Virus record (IMG/VR): IMGVR_UViG_3300021431_000090
Span: 1 to 64,000 of that record
Source of the DNA: a virus
Lineage: Duplodnaviria > Caudoviricetes
Reading direction: 5' to 3' (one strand)
DNA: 64,000 nucleotides
The notes beneath the pieces were generated by a model. The model made no database searches. It was not told where the DNA came from and saw only the letters and a program-made list of their open reading frames with translations. The translations under genes were made by a program, and so were the position numbers. How positions within the stretch are numbered: position 1 is the stretch's first letter; each line of letters starts with the position of its first letter. Of the stretch, positions 9,458 through 54,204 are shown one piece after another.

Positions 9458-9479
9458 ATCTTAGCAAGGAGGTAGCGTG

Positions 9480-10508
9480 ATGGGGCGTAAGACAAAGATG
9501 ACTAGAATCACGAGCCCGGAAAAGACCGCATTGATAAACAAAAACAACATGCGGCTCAAGGACGAGTTTCTTATGTATCTGAAGTCTGTTCAGAGAAGCT
9601 CTGGCACTATCTCCGGGTACGATAGCGATCTGTTAATTTTATTCACATATATTCTTGATAACTTTGACAACAAGGATTTTCAGAGATTAACCAAGCGAGA
9701 CCTGATTAACTTCCAGAACTGGCTTGTTTCTAATGGTAACTCTAGTGCAAGAATTAGAAGAATTAAAGCTGCAATTAGTTCTTTATCTAATTATTGCGAG
9801 AATATTCTATCGGATGACGACCCAGACTTTGATGGGTATCGATCCATAGTAAAGAAGGTCGAGAACCCTCCGCTTCAGCCCGTAAGGGAGAAGACGGTAT
9901 GGGAAGACGAAGAACTTGAGGAGTTGTTATCTAAGCTTGTTGATAAGCAGCAATACAATAAAGCGTGCTGCCTAGCTCTCGCTATGTACAGCGGCAGGAG
10001 AAAGGCTGAGCTCACTCGATTCAGAGTTGATGACTTTACAGACGACAGGCTTGTCTGCGATGGGGCGTTATACAAGAGTTCTCCAATACAGACAAAAGGT
10101 CGCGCTGGCGGCAAATATATTCCATGCTACACACTCGCAAAGAAGTTTAAACCATACCTTGATCTTTGGATGGAAGAACGTGAGCGTTGCGGTATTGAGA
10201 GTGAATGGCTCTTCCCGCTGCCGGAAGATCCTAACGAGCATATCGGAATATCAATGTTGAATAGTTGGGCTGAAACATTTTCTCATATACAGCAGAATGA
10301 TTTCTATTGGCACGCCTTAAGACATTATTATGCAACAAGTTTGGCTCGAGCCGGTATCCCGGACGGTGTTATTCAGAGCATCGTTGGTTGGGACTCTGCT
10401 GATATGGTTAGAGTGTACAAGGATATTGACGCTGACGAAGAAATAGGAATGTATTTTAAGGATGGTGATATCTCCGTCCCAGACAAAAATGGATTCGGCG
10501 ATATCTGA
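9480..10508 (+). CDS. Tyrosine recombinase (no. 1)
   Basis: SAM-like N domain, GRRKAEL (R), KG, HALRH, C-terminal Y (VRVYK). Confidence 0.9.
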   Translation: MGRKTKMTRITSPEKTALINKNNMRLKDEFLMYLKSVQRSSGTISGYDSDLLILFTYILDNFDNKDFQRLTKRDLINFQNWLVSNGNSSARIRRIKAAISSLSNYCENILSDDDPDFDGYRSIVKKVENPPLQPVREKTVWEDEELEELLSKLVDKQQYNKACCLALAMYSGRRKAELTRFRVDDFTDDRLVCDGALYKSSPIQTKGRAGGKYIPCYTLAKKFKPYLDLWMEERERCGIESEWLFPLPEDPNEHIGISMLNSWAETFSHIQQNDFYWHALRHYYATSLARAGIPDGVIQSIVGWDSADMVRVYKDIDADEEIGMYFKDGDISVPDKNGFGDI

Positions 10509-43616: not shown

Positions 43617-45308
43617 ATGGCATTAATTGGTAATCCGATTATAGCTGGTAATGGTGGAGCTGGCAACGGGTATGGTACTTGCTCAACTGCAGCTGGTACC
43701 GCAGCAAAAGTGGTTCCTCTTGCCAACTATAATCTCCAGAATGGTGGAATGGTTTCTGTTAAGTTCACAAACGGAAGCACATCCACAAGCATGACCCTTA
43801 ACATTAACAGTAAGGGCGCAAAGCCGGTTCAGTACAAAGGATCTGCAACTCTCGCAAACGATCTGATAAAAGCTGGCGACATAGTAACATTTAACTATGA
43901 TGGTACAAACTATAATATCCTCTCTATCGATAGATGGGGTAAGGAAGTAAGCGACGTACAGAGTACGCTTGATACAGCAGTCGCTGATATTCGTGAAGAC
44001 TGCGAAGCAATGGTCTCCCCCGCTGTGAACACTTGGTTGGAAACTAATATTACTAACCCGGATAGTCCACCGCTGGATCGGTCATTAACGAATAATAATG
44101 CAGCTGCACCTGCCGACCTGGTTGGTGACTTAAAGGAATCAATTAATATCTTAAAGCAGTTCCACAAAGATGAACTTTCATGGGCGCAGATTCAGCAGAT
44201 CGTTCAGAGTGGAAACGCACAGGACTGGTTTAACATCGGCGATCAGCTTGAAATAAATTGGACTAAGAACGGTACGGTTCATAAACTTCCGTTTGATGTC
44301 GTTTCTTTTGACTCTGTTCTGAAATATGGTGAAAGTGCAGAGAAGCCGGGTCTTTGGCTTCAGAGTCATTATGCAGGAGATGGCGTTCAGTTCAGTGCAT
44401 CCAATGCTCTGTATGTTGCAACTGAAGCACTTCCTGCCGGGACGTATCATTTCACTATTGGCACAAACTGGGGTACTCACTGCGTAGCAGGGAAGTCCTA
44501 TCAGTTCACAACAACAAAACAAATTCCTGCTGGTGGGCAGATTATGGTAGGTAGAAATAATGAATACTACACTTGGGGTGCACCTGATCAGGCTGTTTCT
44601 GGATGGCGTGTGCACACTTTTGAAAGTAGCGCGGCTACAACTCCTCTTGATTCTAATATTGGACTCACTGAAGGCACTGACGGAACTGATCTCGGCACTA
44701 CTACCTCAAGTATAAAGTATAGCGCCAGTGGTATTAATAACCTTCAGAGAGCAGCATACGGCTATAACAGATGGAGTCAGAGTGCAAACCGGCAGTATTA
44801 CAACAGTGCAGCGGCAGCGGGCGCATGGTGGACACCTCAGAATCCGTTTGATAGAGCACCGCAGCAGCTTGCATCTCTTGCAGGATATATGTCTGGATTT
44901 GATGCAGACTTCCTCGCAGTTCTTGGCAAGATTAAAGTTACCACAGCACTGAACACGGTTTCTGATAGTGAGATTGGAACGACAGAAGACACATATGATA
45001 CGTTTTTCCTTCCGTCTCTGGAACAGGAGTATATCGTTTTTCAGTTGGCAGGTGTTGAAGGCGCTTACTGGCCGTATTGGAAAGAACGTCTTGAATTAGA
45101 TACTCCGCAGAAACAGGGTGGTGACGGTACGAATGCCAACCATATCCGTTATGCATATGACGCACGTACATCAGCCCAGGACTGCCGGTTGCGCTCTGCG
45201 CGTCGTGGCGATGCGCTTTATACGTGGAGTGTGGGCGCCAGTGGTTCCGCCAGCTTCAACACCGCCGCGACCGCGACTCGTGGGTGTCCGGCTTGCGTCA
45301 TCTGTTAA
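43617..45308 (+). CDS. Tail fibre / adhesin with C-terminal DUF6273 / C-type-lectin-like domain; DGR target protein
   Basis: Fibre N-terminus (YGTCSTAAGTAAKVV), DWFNIGDQ, NRWSQSANRQYYN, DTFFLPS, and VR-like end RLRSA...W.V...G......A....GCPACVIC. Confidence 0.8.
   Translation: MALIGNPIIAGNGGAGNGYGTCSTAAGTAAKVVPLANYNLQNGGMVSVKFTNGSTSTSMTLNINSKGAKPVQYKGSATLANDLIKAGDIVTFNYDGTNYNILSIDRWGKEVSDVQSTLDTAVADIREDCEAMVSPAVNTWLETNITNPDSPPLDRSLTNNNAAAPADLVGDLKESINILKQFHKDELSWAQIQQIVQSGNAQDWFNIGDQLEINWTKNGTVHKLPFDVVSFDSVLKYGESAEKPGLWLQSHYAGDGVQFSASNALYVATEALPAGTYHFTIGTNWGTHCVAGKSYQFTTTKQIPAGGQIMVGRNNEYYTWGAPDQAVSGWRVHTFESSAATTPLDSNIGLTEGTDGTDLGTTTSSIKYSASGINNLQRAAYGYNRWSQSANRQYYNSAAAAGAWWTPQNPFDRAPQQLASLAGYMSGFDADFLAVLGKIKVTTALNTVSDSEIGTTEDTYDTFFLPSLEQEYIVFQLAGVEGAYWPYWKERLELDTPQKQGGDGTNANHIRYAYDARTSAQDCRLRSARRGDALYTWSVGASGSASFNTAATATRGCPACVIC
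44125..44150 (+). other. Putative tyrosine-recombinase crossover site A, in frame inside the fibre gene
   Basis: GTGACTTAA|AGGAATCA|ATTAATATC; left arm shared with sites B and C. Confidence 0.4.
45174..45308 (+). other. DGR variable region (VR)
   Basis: None of the last 44 sense codons ends in A; presumed variable positions are NNC/NNT, as expected from mutagenised AAY codons. Confidence 0.75.
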
Positions 45309-45319
45309 TCAATCATCTT

Positions 45320-45336
45320 GCGCCGCCACGCGGCGC
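45320..45336. promoter_or_regulatory. DGR target-recognition hairpin/cruciform
   Basis: GCGCCGC-cac-GCGGCGC, 11 nt after the target stop. Confidence 0.75.
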
Positions 45337-45350
45337 TAAGAGGAGGAAGA

Positions 45351-45764
45351 ATGTCAGTACCCGCAAATGAAAGAAGTCACGGGAAATTAGAAGCAAGCGT
45401 AAAAGCGCACGCATTATGCTGTTATACGTTACAGATTACAGCAAACGAGAAAGTGTTTGACCATCAATTTCAAGCATCCTTAACCAACAGAATAGTGGAT
45501 ACTGCGATAAGTATCCACACACTCTGTTGGAGTGCAAATAACGTTCTTGTTAATAGCAAGGAAGATTTGCGGGAAAGAACATCTTACCAAGAACAGGCAG
45601 CGGTTCAGTGCAATGTTTTATTAAGTTTAATCGAGATAGCGAAAAAGATTTTTCATCTATCCACGAAACGAGTGACATATTGGAGCGGACTTGCAATTGA
45701 TGCAAGAAATCTAATCCGAGGATGGAGAACAGCAGACTTAAACCGCTACGCATACTTTAAATAA
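45351..45764 (+). CDS. avd: DGR accessory variability determinant (four-helix bundle)
   Basis: RBS AGGAGG; 137 aa helical protein, MSVPANERS...LEA, ANNV, R...QEQA, YW.GL....RNLIRGW; directly after the VR and hairpin. Confidence 0.75.
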   Translation: MSVPANERSHGKLEASVKAHALCCYTLQITANEKVFDHQFQASLTNRIVDTAISIHTLCWSANNVLVNSKEDLRERTSYQEQAAVQCNVLLSLIEIAKKIFHLSTKRVTYWSGLAIDARNLIRGWRTADLNRYAYFK

Positions 45765-45785
45765 GTTTTATATGGGGTGATAATA

Positions 45786-45971
45786 ATGGTAGCAATCAAC
45801 AGAAAACTGACCCCTGCTGAACGTGCCAACCTTGACAACGCTCGTGCAGGTGCAGAGCAAAATGCCGTCAGCATTGATGACATCATGAATGCGATGGTAG
45901 AACTTGGAGAACTGTTCGCCGAGCAGGATGATGCTCTGGTAGAACTGGCTGAACTTATTGAGGAGGCTTAA
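45786..45971 (+). CDS. Small acidic tail-fibre chaperone-like protein
   Basis: DDALVELAELI motif. Confidence 0.6.
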   Translation: MVAINRKLTPAERANLDNARAGAEQNAVSIDDIMNAMVELGELFAEQDDALVELAELIEEA

Positions 45972-45973
45972 TA

Positions 45974-46087
45974 ATGGCTAAGATTTATTACAATCGTATC
46001 AAAGCAGGTATCATGACCATCGAGGAAGTTCCTACCAGATGGAGAGCAGCTGTTCAGAAGTTGCTCGATGAGGACGAAGAAGAGTGA
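45974..46087 (+). CDS. CD1375/XkdX-like small protein (37 aa, not in track)
   Basis: RBS GGAGG; MAKIYYNRIKAGIMTIEEVPTRWRAAVQKLL. Confidence 0.75.
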   Translation: MAKIYYNRIKAGIMTIEEVPTRWRAAVQKLLDEDEEE

Positions 46088-46263
46088 AAACCACTACGAG
46101 CGTAACTCTTGAAGGAAAAGAAGTCAGAGCAATCATTGCAAAAGCATTGAACGTTCCAATTCCGAATGTGAAACCACTTCGGTACAATTTCGCAATTGAA
46201 GGAATTGCGCCGGAAGTTGTGGAACAGAAGATCAAAGATTTTCTTGGGCAGTTAGTTACTTAA
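46084..46263 (+). CDS. 59-aa hypothetical protein whose stop lies in recombination site B
   Basis: GTGA overlap; MKTTTSVTLEGKEVRAIIAKALNVP... Confidence 0.55.
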   Translation: MKTTTSVTLEGKEVRAIIAKALNVPIPNVKPLRYNFAIEGIAPEVVEQKIKDFLGQLVT

Positions 46264-46521
46264 ATGGAGCTATTCATCACTACTGTTGCACACTGATACA
46301 CACTGATACACATGGATAAAGCAGACTTGAAATCTATGATGGTAGTGGTCGAGCGACTGCCTCTCCCGCCCTGCGTTGACAGACAAGCGAGAGATCGTTT
46401 AACGGTTAAAGACCATAGATAAAACAGACGGGTTCCGCTAAGCTCGTGAGTGATTGTGGCGAAGATTAAAGCGATGGTAGTTAAGGGGCATCCGCCCGTC
46501 TGAATTATTATGAGGTGACGT

Positions 46522-46617
46522 ATGAGATTTGATTGGGATAGTTTTTGCCTTGGCATTTGTGCAGGGGTAGTATTTGCGGCGATTGCGACGATTGCTGTGA
46601 TATGCGTATGCGCCTAA
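46522..46617 (+). CDS. 31-aa single-TM hydrophobic peptide (type I toxin-like; not in track)
   Basis: RBS GAGGTG; MRFDWDSFCLGICAGVVFAAIATIAVICVCA. Confidence 0.55.
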   Translation: MRFDWDSFCLGICAGVVFAAIATIAVICVCA

Positions 46618-46620
46618 TTA

Positions 46621-46652
46621 AAAAACAAGGGGCATCAATACCCCTTGCTCTT
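46621..46652. terminator. Terminator between the convergent peptide and RHH genes
   Basis: A-run, then CAAGGGG-catcaata-CCCCTTG. Confidence 0.55.
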
Positions 46653-46817
46653 GAGCCACTCGTCCAACGCTTTCTGGATGCACCATGACCGAGGACGCTC
46701 TTCCTCTTCCATGAACTTATTCAGACGTTCGACAATAGACGGTGGCAGAGAGATTTGATATCGCTCATATCCTTGCTCTTCAATGCCACGGAGTGAGCGA
46801 CCACCATTGATGCCCAT
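46635..46817 (-). CDS. Ribbon-helix-helix (CopG-like) regulator
   Basis: RYQISLPPSIVERLNKFMEEEERPRSWCIQKALDEWL; RBS GGAGG. Confidence 0.8.
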   Translation of the reverse strand: MGINGGRSLRGIEEQGYERYQISLPPSIVERLNKFMEEEERPRSWCIQKALDEWLKSKGY

Positions 46818-47129
46818 TGGCAACCACCTCCCACTATCAATATTATACAGTGTGTGTCAATGTGTACTGATACACAACGTGTGTATCGATAAGCAACTTT
46901 AGTATGGAGCTTTAAGTAAAAGACATTTCCTTCACAGGTAAAAAATAAATGAATAAATCAGCCGTATTATGCGCATATTTTCACAAGCATGCATGTACGG
47001 CTGGTTTTATAATTAGGTTGAGTTTACAATTTGTTTACAGGATTTATGGCGAAATTCTTGATTTCATACCATCCGACTTTGCTATAATTCAATTAAAAAG
47101 ATTAATTATTATAGCAAAGGAGAAATAAA

Positions 47130-48116
47130 TTGTCAATAGTTTCCAAGCAAATTTTTTTGTCTGAAATTGAAGAAAGCCTTTCGGATTATCTAACGGTCAC
47201 ACAGCTCAAAGGAGTCATTGATAATCTAACGGCTACGCTCGGTAAGTATGATATGGAACGCAGCGCTGACGATTCCTGTGAACAAGAGTTTGATGATATG
47301 ATACAGGTATTCTTAGAGGCGAAGCGTGTATCAGGCTTATCTGAAGGAACATTAGAGAGATACGTATACATACTTAAAAAGTTTAGAGAAGCTTGTTCGA
47401 CTCCAATTCGTAGAATTACCGTGTTTGATCTTCGTTGCTTTTTGATGAAAGAGAAGACTCGCGGTATTTCTACAAGCACAATCGAAGGATATAGAGATGT
47501 GTTCTCAGCGTTCTTTGGATGGGTTGCCCGTGAAGGCCTCTTACCGTATAACCCATGCGGGAATCTTGCGGTAGTAAAAAGCAAGAAAGAGGTAAGGCTC
47601 CCTTATAGTGACGTTGATATCGAAAAATTAAAAGAAGCTTGTCAGTCTATAAGAGATAAGGCGATGATATGCTTCCTGTTGTCTACTGGATGCAGAATCA
47701 GTGAGGTGTGTGCGTTGAACAGAGACGATGTGGATCTACTCAACAAAGAATGCATCGTGCTCGGAAAAGGTAACAAAGAACGTAGAGTTTATATGGATGA
47801 TATCTCCGTGATGATGCTCAAAAGGTATCTCGATGAGCGTACGGATGATTCAGAAGCGTTGTTTGTCGGGAAAGGAACTGAAAGAATACAACCGGGTGGT
47901 GTAAGAGCGATGCTGAAAAATATCGGTGAAAAGGCTGGGGTCGAGAATGTTCACCCGCATCGATTCAGAAGAACTCTTGCTACAAATCTTATCAACCGAG
48001 GAATGCCAATTCAGGAAGTTGCCCGTGTTCTTGGACACGAAAAAGTCGACACAACTATGAAATACATTTATATTAACGATGATAGTGTTCGCACTTCTTA
48101 TCGTAAATGTTCTTAA
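47130..48116 (+). CDS. XerC/D-like tyrosine recombinase (no. 2)
   Basis: TGCRISE, GKGNKER, HPHRFRRT, LGH...TTMKY. Confidence 0.92.
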   Translation: MSIVSKQIFLSEIEESLSDYLTVTQLKGVIDNLTATLGKYDMERSADDSCEQEFDDMIQVFLEAKRVSGLSEGTLERYVYILKKFREACSTPIRRITVFDLRCFLMKEKTRGISTSTIEGYRDVFSAFFGWVAREGLLPYNPCGNLAVVKSKKEVRLPYSDVDIEKLKEACQSIRDKAMICFLLSTGCRISEVCALNRDDVDLLNKECIVLGKGNKERRVYMDDISVMMLKRYLDERTDDSEALFVGKGTERIQPGGVRAMLKNIGEKAGVENVHPHRFRRTLATNLINRGMPIQEVARVLGHEKVDTTMKYIYINDDSVRTSYRKCS

Positions 48117-52338: not shown

Positions 52339-53496
52339 CTACAAAAGCTCTGCACATAGGTCTGAGCCGACCGTTTTTAAGTGCTGATTCGTCAAATGTC
52401 CATAAATATTGCCGGTTGTTTGGATATCAGAATGACCAAGCCACTCCTGAACATCTTTAAGATTATGCCCGGATTCAAGCAATATACTCGCACACGAATG
52501 TCTTAAATCGTGTAGCCGTATATCCGGCATACCGTGTCGTGCAAGAATCTTATGAAAAGTTTTCGTGATATAGTCTGGCGAGTATGGCCTCCCGTCATCC
52601 CATTTGAAGACATAATCATTTTTAACGTATCTGTCGCCGAGAAGCTTTTCATTGTTCTCCTCTTTCGCTTTCGCATCAGCGAATATCTTCTCGATCTCTG
52701 GCGTCATTGGATATGTTCTGTAGCTATCGTCTGTCTTGGTGTCGTCTTTCTCTACCAGCTTGCTGCATCTGCACACGACGTGTTTGATTACGACGCGCTT
52801 ACTTTCAAAGTCTAGACTATCCCATTTTAGTCCAAGCAGTTCGCTTCTCCTTAGTCCATACAACGCCGTGACGATGATAAGAGGAGCGAGAGGCTCGTCT
52901 TTGACAGCTTTAAACAGCTCCTTCATTTGGGCTGACGCATAGAACGACGGTTTAAATTTTTGTTTCTTCGGCCGTTTGATTCTGTCGACAGGATTATCTT
53001 GGATACGCTTCTTGTCTACAGCGTCGGCACAAATCACACTCAACACAGTGAGGTAATTTCTAACCGACTTATTCGATAGCGAACCGCCTGTTTTAACATT
53101 GCCGTATTCTGAGAGATGACTAGCAAATTGTTGTACCGCTTCAGGCGTTAAGTCCTGTATGTCAACCTTGTGCTGCTTGAAATATGGGACGATATGTTTT
53201 TCGACGCCTATCTTATAGCCTTGATATGTGATTGGGTCGTAAATGTGCTCGGCGTATTTAATCCATTCTTCAGCATAGTCTGCTACAGGAATCTTTTTCG
53301 TTGCCAATACTTCCGACGATACATCACGATACTCTTCAAGCGTATCATCGAGGAACTTCTTTGCGGCACGTTTGTTATGCCCGTCAATGCTCAGCTTGGT
53401 GGATATCCATTTCTGTTTCCTATTGCCATTCTCGTCCGTAATATTGAGTACGGCATAGTACATATTCTTTTTAATTTGTAAGCTTCCTGTTATCAT
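52339..53496 (-). CDS. int: Phage integrase (tyrosine recombinase no. 3)
   Basis: N-terminal arm-binding domain, GLRRSELLGLKW, LHDLRHS, LGHSDIQTTGNIY. Confidence 0.93.
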   Translation of the reverse strand: MITGSLQIKKNMYYAVLNITDENGNRKQKWISTKLSIDGHNKRAAKKFLDDTLEEYRDVSSEVLATKKIPVADYAEEWIKYAEHIYDPITYQGYKIGVEKHIVPYFKQHKVDIQDLTPEAVQQFASHLSEYGNVKTGGSLSNKSVRNYLTVLSVICADAVDKKRIQDNPVDRIKRPKKQKFKPSFYASAQMKELFKAVKDEPLAPLIIVTALYGLRRSELLGLKWDSLDFESKRVVIKHVVCRCSKLVEKDDTKTDDSYRTYPMTPEIEKIFADAKAKEENNEKLLGDRYVKNDYVFKWDDGRPYSPDYITKTFHKILARHGMPDIRLHDLRHSCASILLESGHNLKDVQEWLGHSDIQTTGNIYGHLTNQHLKTVGSDLCAELL

Positions 53497-53561
53497 ATTA
53501 CACCTCCGTTGAACGGAAGCCATGACATATATGTATTTCGATTATAAATGACGGAGGAAGA

Positions 53562-54060: not shown

Positions 54061-54204
54061 CTATGACTTGAGCAATATTAAGTAACCAATCATTCCCAGT
54101 ATTATTTGTCTTACTTCTGAAAAATTATACATATCGTCTGGGTCAAGGTCCTTCAACATCCACTTCGCATAATCAATCGCTTCATCGATTTTTTCGTTTT
54201 CCAT
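54061..54204 (-). CDS. 47-aa hypothetical protein (not in track)
   Basis: RBS GGAG; MENEKIDEAIDYAKWMLKDLDPDD... Confidence 0.5.
   Translation of the reverse strand: MENEKIDEAIDYAKWMLKDLDPDDMYNFSEVRQIILGMIGYLILLKS

Follow-up and report, generated by a model that had tools for sequence, protein, structure and literature searches.

The fibre–recombinase locus and its three sites

We analysed a stretch of 64,000 nucleotides, here called the window, which makes up positions 1 to 64,000 of an IMG/VR virus record (IMGVR_UViG_3300021431_000090; Caudoviricetes) that is complete at 107,085 bp, carries terminal repeats and originates from a ruminant gut sample, with regard to a tail-fibre locus for which a preliminary description had proposed a candidate cassette system served by a Xer-like tyrosine recombinase. 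At this locus, a gene for a BppU-type baseplate protein is followed by the gene for a tail-fibre or receptor-binding protein of 563 amino acids (aa; 43617..45308, plus strand), by avd, encoding the accessory protein of a diversity-generating retroelement (DGR), by three small open reading frames (ORFs), by a stretch of 640 bp and by the recombinase gene, after which come genes for an endolysin and a holin. The fibre protein has a constant stalk up to about residue 170, an exchangeable tip starting from the site here called A, and a DUF6273-type C-terminus ending in the variable region (VR) of the DGR. The avd gene (45351..45764, plus strand) matched phrog_3206 with an E-value of 6.5e-12. The three small ORFs of 64/61, 37 and 59 aa (45777..46263, plus strand) had no Pfam or PHROG match and always accompany the DGR module, with equal gene order in the related loci L008, L010 and L040–L043. 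An Rfam search of the window gave no family match, and among GenBank phages no near-identical record to the window phage was found.

The recombinase gene (47130..48116, plus strand; TTG start) lies 1.8 kb after the fibre gene and encodes a XerD-like protein of 328 aa with Pfam domains SAM_4 and Phage_integrase, thus having a core-binding and a catalytic domain, without an arm-binding domain, and with the catalytic residues kept. The nearest NCBIfam models were Xer-type, and an integron-type recombinase was not supported, with scores of 60.5 bits for TIGR02249 (cut-off 265) and 34 for NF011946 (cut-off 435). Because a separate and conventional integrase of 394 aa is encoded at 52339–53523, on the strand opposite to that of the recombinase, the latter is an extra enzyme and not the lysogeny integrase. 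Two more tyrosine recombinase genes were seen, at 9477–10508 of the window and at 78828–79382 of the genome, giving a total of four in the 107-kb genome.

Three related sites had been placed upstream of the recombinase, at 44125, 46255 and 46895, and the sequences indeed stand at those coordinates, all listed on the plus strand. They had been divided into arms of 9 bp around a core of 8 bp; a 10-6-10 division, with a spacer of 6 bp, fits better. Site A (44125–44150) then has a strong arm, GTGACTTAAA, at 44125–44134, the spacer GGAATC at 44135–44140 and a weak inner arm at 44141–44150. Site B (46255–46280) has its strong arm, GTTACTTAAA, at 46255–46264 and the spacer TGGAGC at 46265–46270, followed by a weak arm at 46271–46280 that is the left end of a small cassette, the right end of which forms the weak arm of site C (46895–46920) at 46895–46904, followed there by TGGAGC at 46905–46910 and the strong arm TTTAAGTAAA at 46911–46920. 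As had been described, site A is read in frame at the junction between stalk and tip, as G-D-L-K-E-S-I-N, and site B holds the stop codon of the upstream gene, this being the stop of the 59-aa ORF, within the strong arm.

Only A, B and C were present in the window, in direct orientation and with two different spacers. The 9-mer G[TG][TG]ACTTAA had three occurrences in the 107-kb genome, counting both strands (in A, in B and at 54078), and the bare 8-mer ATGGAGCT was not rare, with four copies in the window versus 2.3 expected. The sites exceed chance in that independent homology breakpoints fall on A, B and C, as detailed below. Full sites, having two inverted arms around a spacer of 6–8 bp, were found in L041, L043, L128, L132, L044, L049 and L213, and in the window the cassette interrupts the full right-hand site, leaving B and C on its two sides. 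The homologue in L132 of the strong arm of site C has an equal distance upstream of the recombinase gene.

Homology breakpoints, tip exchange and small cassettes

Coincidence of synteny breakpoints in relatives with the three sites was the check set by the preliminary description, and the breakpoints were found to fall on A, B and C. Logan contigs of four sequencing runs were compared, X1 being the probable source run and X2, X4 and X5 coming from other studies. In X1 the region was split into three contigs, one ending at 44154, one of 2,786 nt corresponding to 44125–46910 and one starting at 46881, with overlaps of 30 bases, equal to k−1 in the assembly graph. Depth was 89.9 for the middle contig, compared with 79 and 82 for the adjoining ones, and both of its ends were loose, with other X1 contigs joining it from unrelated sequence before 44121 and exiting into unrelated sequence after 46910. 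This depth and these alternative flanks led us to conclude that a second genome in the source sample carries 44125–46910 without differences. The left flank of this second context matched the IMG/VR contig L011. In an independent ENA assembly of the window phage, of 104,378 nt, the first base corresponds to 46856 and the last to 44179; these ends would be the Logan branch points at 44125 and 46910 moved inward by 54 bases, as a graph with k=55 would give.

The relatives gave the same picture. Homology to the window started at 44121–44130 in L010, L011, X2, X4 and X5 and ended at 46270–46274 in L010, L040–L043, X2 and X4, the shared part in L010, X2, X4 and X5 being only that from 44130 to about 46270. 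Further to the right, contigs of X1 and X2 stop at 46910 and X5 diverges past 46917. All three runs from other studies contained 44130 to about 46270 together with pieces of the 640-bp unit, at about 97% identity, with stalk and recombinase absent. L010 likewise has window positions 44130–45779 and 45771–46270 at 97% identity with unrelated DNA on either side, and L040–L043 also share this segment within unrelated surroundings. At least four unrelated backbones share the A-to-B module, comprising the fibre tip, the VR, avd and the three small ORFs, at about 97% identity, with breaks at A and B every time. A metagenome scan with the 59-aa ORF gave one distant match only.

Several tips were also found in one and the same backbone. 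In the lineage P0011, having a recombinase 60% identical to that of the window, L213, L214, L216 and L218 share an identical recombinase protein and a backbone of 96–99% identity and carry four different tips, in fibres of 727, 648, 606 and 548 aa. Homology within this lineage ends directly after the exact arm of window site A followed by GGAATC, and restarts at TTAAA-TGGAGC-TTTAA, with the spacer of B and C. In the lineage P0006 (recombinase 65% identical), one recombinase protein is found behind two tips. The differences between L044 and L046 are confined to the segment from a stalk site, consisting of arm and spacer, to a palindromic site that precedes the recombinase gene by about 430 nt, the spacers being other than those of the window. 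Over 44097–44140, the stalk end of the window matches those of L044, L046 and L213 at 87–91% identity. A stalk end with site A precedes five tips (those of the window, L213, L214, L216 and L218), so that the N-terminal part of the fibre stays constant and the C-terminal parts fused to it in frame vary. Site A had been considered the weakest part of the model; with its arm and spacer conserved letter for letter in a lineage having a 60% identical recombinase, and with four tips following it there, it is, judged from these sequences, the strongest element of that earlier reading. Of the proposal that the recombinase swaps host-range modules in frame at A, the in-frame exchange of tips at this site thereby stands, with the recombinase presumably acting as its catalyst.

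The right-hand site is occupied by small accessory cassettes, as had been suggested, being empty in L041 and filled in L040, and holding the 640-bp unit in the window. The symmetric empty site expected as the product of recombination between B and C also exists, since L041 and L043 read strong arm, TGGAGC and inverted strong arm, the right arm differing by one or two letters, downstream of an identical 59-aa ORF; L042 has another empty form. None of the exact predicted empty-site strings was found in IMG/VR, and a near-match empty site was seen in Logan and ENA contigs. Comparing L040 with L041, the flanks were 99.5% and 97.5% identical and L040 had an insert of 861 nt with TGGAGC at both ends. 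From these empty and filled states we conclude that the site consists of 10-bp inverted arms around a 6-bp spacer, and that insertion duplicates the spacer. Inserts related to that of L040 are carried by L010 and L020, and all of these inserts, that of L040 included, start with a minus-strand gene for a ribbon-helix-helix (RHH) protein, after which the cargo differs.

The 640-bp cassette of the window (46271..46910, including one spacer copy) comprises a non-coding left part, a 31-aa hydrophobic ORF (46522–46617, plus strand) and an RHH/CopG gene (46635–46823, minus strand). Some of its parts have other surroundings in X2 and X5, with X2 having a different sequence left of 46512 and no contig covering 46329–46511, and in the second X1 context the apparent left end of a further cassette follows site C. 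When the left cassette end was used as a 17-mer pattern to scan IMG/VR, matches were at chance level, only those in L010 and L020 being real. L025, L027 and L031 were rejected as relatives, as they had a similar string and no nucleotide similarity to the genome; no recombinase homologue was found in L025 or L031. Also rejected was a structured RNA in the non-coding part of the cassette (46318–46512), with a fold energy no better than that of shuffles (z = −0.73) and no Rfam match. Near both cassette ends (46283–46312 and 46851–46889) we noted boxes of the GATACACA type and 25-nt imperfect inverted repeats, and a box resembling this type also follows site C in the second X1 context. These boxes and repeats may be RHH operators or accessory recombination sites; the 25-nt repeats are not conserved in the L040 cassette.

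The module carried by the window proved to hold an orphaned DGR. Its VR (45170..45303, plus strand, 134 nt) is 83% identical to the template repeat (TR) of L010, with 23 of 23 mismatches falling at template adenines. Between its two module blocks, L010 has this 134-nt TR and a gene for a reverse transcriptase (RT; RVT_1), and relatives place the RT between avd and the small ORFs. In the window, a deletion scar is found at 45771..45779 (plus strand), where one copy of the 9-nt repeat TATGGGGTG is kept and where relatives have TR and RT gene (about 1.3 kb). Since TR and RT are missing exactly between two copies of this repeat, the DGR was orphaned by a microhomology deletion and not by the sites. 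Contrary to the earlier idea, the loss of DGR parts is thus unrelated to the sites. Neither a TR copy nor a DGR-type RT was found in the 107-kb genome, and L043 has a different deletion, also taking most of avd. As in the DGR of BPP-1 type, the VR forms the end of the target gene, and a GC hairpin and avd come after it, with adenine-specific substitutions relative to the template of the relatives; the difference is that TR and RT are deleted in the window genome, so that the fibre tip of the window is frozen. The locus thereby illustrates the decay of a DGR once its module is fixed. The only RT in the genome (387 aa; genome 95655–96251, minus strand, outside the window) is of retron type (NF038233, 163 bits, below cut-off), and a 44-nt repeat near this gene at 95.6 kb was rejected as a TR/VR pair.

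The recombinase family and explanations for the exchange

More than 5,000 proteins matched the recombinase at E < 1e-20 and, among 120 matches listed, nearly all were of 325–336 aa and most of exactly 328. The catalytic Arg, His-x-x-Arg, His and Tyr were invariant in 27 homologues. Wherever context exists, the gene sits between fibre and lysis genes of temperate phages having another integrase, including a cultured Terrisporobacter phage, and this order is kept across lineages down to 32% identity; at the locus of the Terrisporobacter phage, no clear repeated sites were found in AT-rich DNA. The palindrome TTAAA-N6-TTTAA occurred 21 times in 872 kb of homologue loci versus 2.3 times in shuffles (about 9-fold), with about 12 of the copies within 450 nt of the recombinase gene. 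No shared 8-mer was found upstream of 70 recombinase homologues, from which we conclude that the sites co-vary with the recombinase. Beside this, we noted that L132, the closest context available for a recombinase of 71% identity, starts upstream of the site with an apparent 3' part of a tRNA gene (1–70), followed by a 112-aa ORF in place of the long fibre gene.

Such a palindrome next to the gene could also mean that the two form a genome resolution or cyclising pair similar to Cre/loxP or Xer/dif, with cassette capture and mosaic joints as by-products and with the exchange at A caused otherwise. In line with this, loxP adjoins cre in phage P1, most close relatives have their single full site 100–450 nt from the gene, and NCBIfam puts the protein nearest to Xer proteins. 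We nevertheless find this explanation very unlikely, as these phages integrate and have their own lysogeny integrase, the fibre module always has the site at its 3' edge, the fibre gene contains a perfect arm with a conserved spacer precisely where the tips change, and the distant homologues are fibre invertases.

These distant homologues, of 36–47% identity, belong to true shufflons at fibre genes, having three to nine copies of a 10–11-bp site on both strands around the recombinase gene. Inverted multi-copy crossover sites with stored segments were seen in L101, L105, L106, L116, L118 and L125, with a 330-nt segment inverted between L105 and L106. The recombinase family is thereby tied to rearrangement of fibre tips, as had been thought. 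A shufflon geometry was not found in the window itself, where the sites have no inversion arrangement and no alternative tips were detected on either strand. It could still be argued that one site is present twice in inverted orientation, as A and as C, with ACTTAAAG on opposite strands, and that the 2.8-kb segment between them would invert as an ON/OFF switch of the fibre tip, considering that relatives of the recombinase invert DNA and that the arms of A and C are mutually inverted. However, the spacers differ when read from the strong arms (GGAATC versus GCTCCA), inversion would be predicted to join the stalk to about 60 out-of-frame codons, no inverted contig was present in the four runs, and relatives show replacement instead, making such a switch extremely improbable. 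As a separate observation, the recombinase gene is bracketed by inverted copies of a second motif, TGGGAATTTAAT, in L105 (5918–7110) and L106 (5012–6204), where it may lie on an invertible or exchangeable segment.

We believe that the locus probably serves as a platform for site-specific exchange of cassettes at the end of the tail fibre that recognises the host; the observations of the preliminary description were confirmed and its interpretation is partly supported. In the mechanism that we propose, the backbone would supply two docking sites, one in the fibre gene (A, with the arm GTGACTTAAA and GGAATC) and one about 220 nt upstream of the recombinase gene (the arm TTTAAGTAAA and TGGAGC), and the DNA between them would be the exchangeable module, consisting in the window of the tip with its orphaned DGR followed by the separate 640-bp RHH cassette. 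Strong outer arms and spacers would be retained by the backbone, and weak inner arms would come with the cassettes. The Xer-like recombinase would most likely bind the 10-bp arms and exchange strands across the 6-bp spacers; its role as catalyst, the exact cleavage points and a continuing activity of the system are what we infer. Since B and C share a spacer in direct orientation, recombination between them would circularise and release the 640-bp unit, leaving behind the full palindromic site, the reverse reaction being cassette capture. The essential tip could not be deleted against B or C, because the spacer of A differs, and it would instead be replaced directionally and in frame by double exchange with another genome carrying a matching pair of sites. 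The lineage with four tips and the second context in the source sample would be the expected traces of such an exchange. To the wider proposal, that in a widespread clade of temperate phages of gut and rumen a dedicated Xer-like recombinase and a standard heterospecific pair of sites constitute a natural system for exchange of tips, including whole DGR units, and that the right-hand site also captures, in the manner of an integron, small cassettes with regulators that an outward promoter within the recombinase gene would express, we would give about an even chance.

Several points weigh against this mechanism. Each site in the window has one good arm only. For the window phage itself, neither binding, cutting, a circle nor an empty junction was observed in the contigs of the four runs, where we saw no B–C excision joint, circle junction or inversion, although contigs drop rare forms and are therefore uninformative either way. 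The difference in spacer between A and B/C excludes a simple single-crossover origin of the tip module, and a double exchange has to be invoked. In most close relatives the palindromic site is single, a pattern equally compatible with a lox-like role. Moreover, L020 has no recombinase within 12 kb downstream despite carrying module and site, and in L040 the nearest recombinase homologue is only 45% identical and 10 kb away. No recombinase homologue was found in L010, L011 or L020, the contigs being fragments of 19–31% completeness.

That backbones without a nearby recombinase hold the module would agree with the sites being conserved connectors, at which general or short-homology recombination of co-infecting phages resolves, the recombinase then being a bystander, left over, for example, from an earlier shufflon. 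Phages are known to be mosaic at conserved boundary sequences, and the deletion of TR and RT in the window module itself arose via microhomology of 9 nt. We regard this as unlikely, considering that identity at the joints covers only about 16 nt and has the geometry of a recombinase site, with inverted 10-bp arms and a 6-bp spacer, that insertions duplicate the spacer exactly, that the palindrome is enriched about 9-fold and clustered by the recombinase gene, and that gene order is kept down to 32% identity. Site geometry, spacer duplication, enrichment by the gene and the pattern of replacement argue against the connectors, the resolution pair and the inversion switch alike.

Relation to known systems and a candidate outward promoter

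Among described systems, the Rin shufflon of Bifidobacterium prophages (Mavrich et al. 2018, PMC6109161) comes closest; a Rin-type system has also been reported for Eggerthella lenta prophages (PMC8778435), and in BV01-like Phocaeicola phages (PMC13596623) a recombinase is described as flanking a tail-fibre shufflon. As in Rin, the window has a phage XerD-like recombinase without an arm-binding domain beside the receptor-binding gene, short sites in and just past that gene, and a constant N-terminus in frame with variable C-termini. Rin has several identical 11-bp inverted sites, stored promoterless tips and inversion within one genome, whereas in the window the sites are direct, their spacers are of two kinds and no tips are stored, the variation being that of replacement between genomes and of insertion and excision of small cassettes. 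The sites of the R64 shufflon (Rci, sfx) are asymmetric, with one conserved arm and a spacer, and the C-terminal part of an adhesin is swapped in frame. The window sites are asymmetric in the same manner, likewise with in-frame exchange of the C-terminus of an adhesin; Rci, in contrast, is restricted to inverted sfx sites and concerns a pilus gene on a plasmid.

With Cre/loxP and engineered recombinase-mediated cassette exchange (RMCE), the locus shares inverted arms around a short spacer and the flanking of a replaceable segment by two sites with different spacers, a likeness that predicts directional, in-frame replacement without deletion. RMCE is, however, a laboratory design, and in the published literature that was searched we found no natural counterpart at a phage host-range locus. 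Known routes by which phages change host range are point mutation, DGR hypermutation, inversion shufflons and untargeted mosaic recombination. To these, the locus would add a targeted route, in which receptor-binding modules, potentially with a DGR of their own, pass in their entirety from one backbone to another, unrelated one by way of short standard connectors that allow exchange in frame with no risk of tip deletion. This would explain how one tip module can be found across many ruminant gut samples while the surrounding phages differ, and would give a simple rule for predicting the exchangeable parts of gut phage genomes. The recombinase and its sites would also be a compact natural pair with heterospecific spacers, useful for engineering phages of anaerobes.

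Similarities to integrons were seen in the recombinase gene adjoining the primary site, in the insertion there of promoterless or small gene cassettes, in their empty and filled states and in the arrays. A candidate for a strong outward promoter can, in addition, be predicted at the 5' end of the recombinase gene, directed into the cassettes. The locus differs from integrons in that the recombinase is not IntI, in having short palindromes of double-strand type instead of folded attC sites, and in that the cassettes include part of an essential structural gene. Sites of attC type, being long imperfect palindromes, were not found, and the cassette joints consist of the 6-bp spacer and short weak arms. 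The candidate promoter (47108..47136, minus strand), a pattern match only, has 12 of 12 consensus positions of a sigma-70 promoter (TTGACA, 17 nt and TATAAT, with TG). It overlaps the ribosome-binding site and TTG start of the recombinase gene and appears to point to site C and the cassette, an arrangement also recognisable in L132 and L048. The element could be either an outward promoter similar to Pc or an antisense control of the recombinase. Facing it, a further candidate promoter can be read on the plus strand at 47059–47090, inside a 12-nt inverted repeat.

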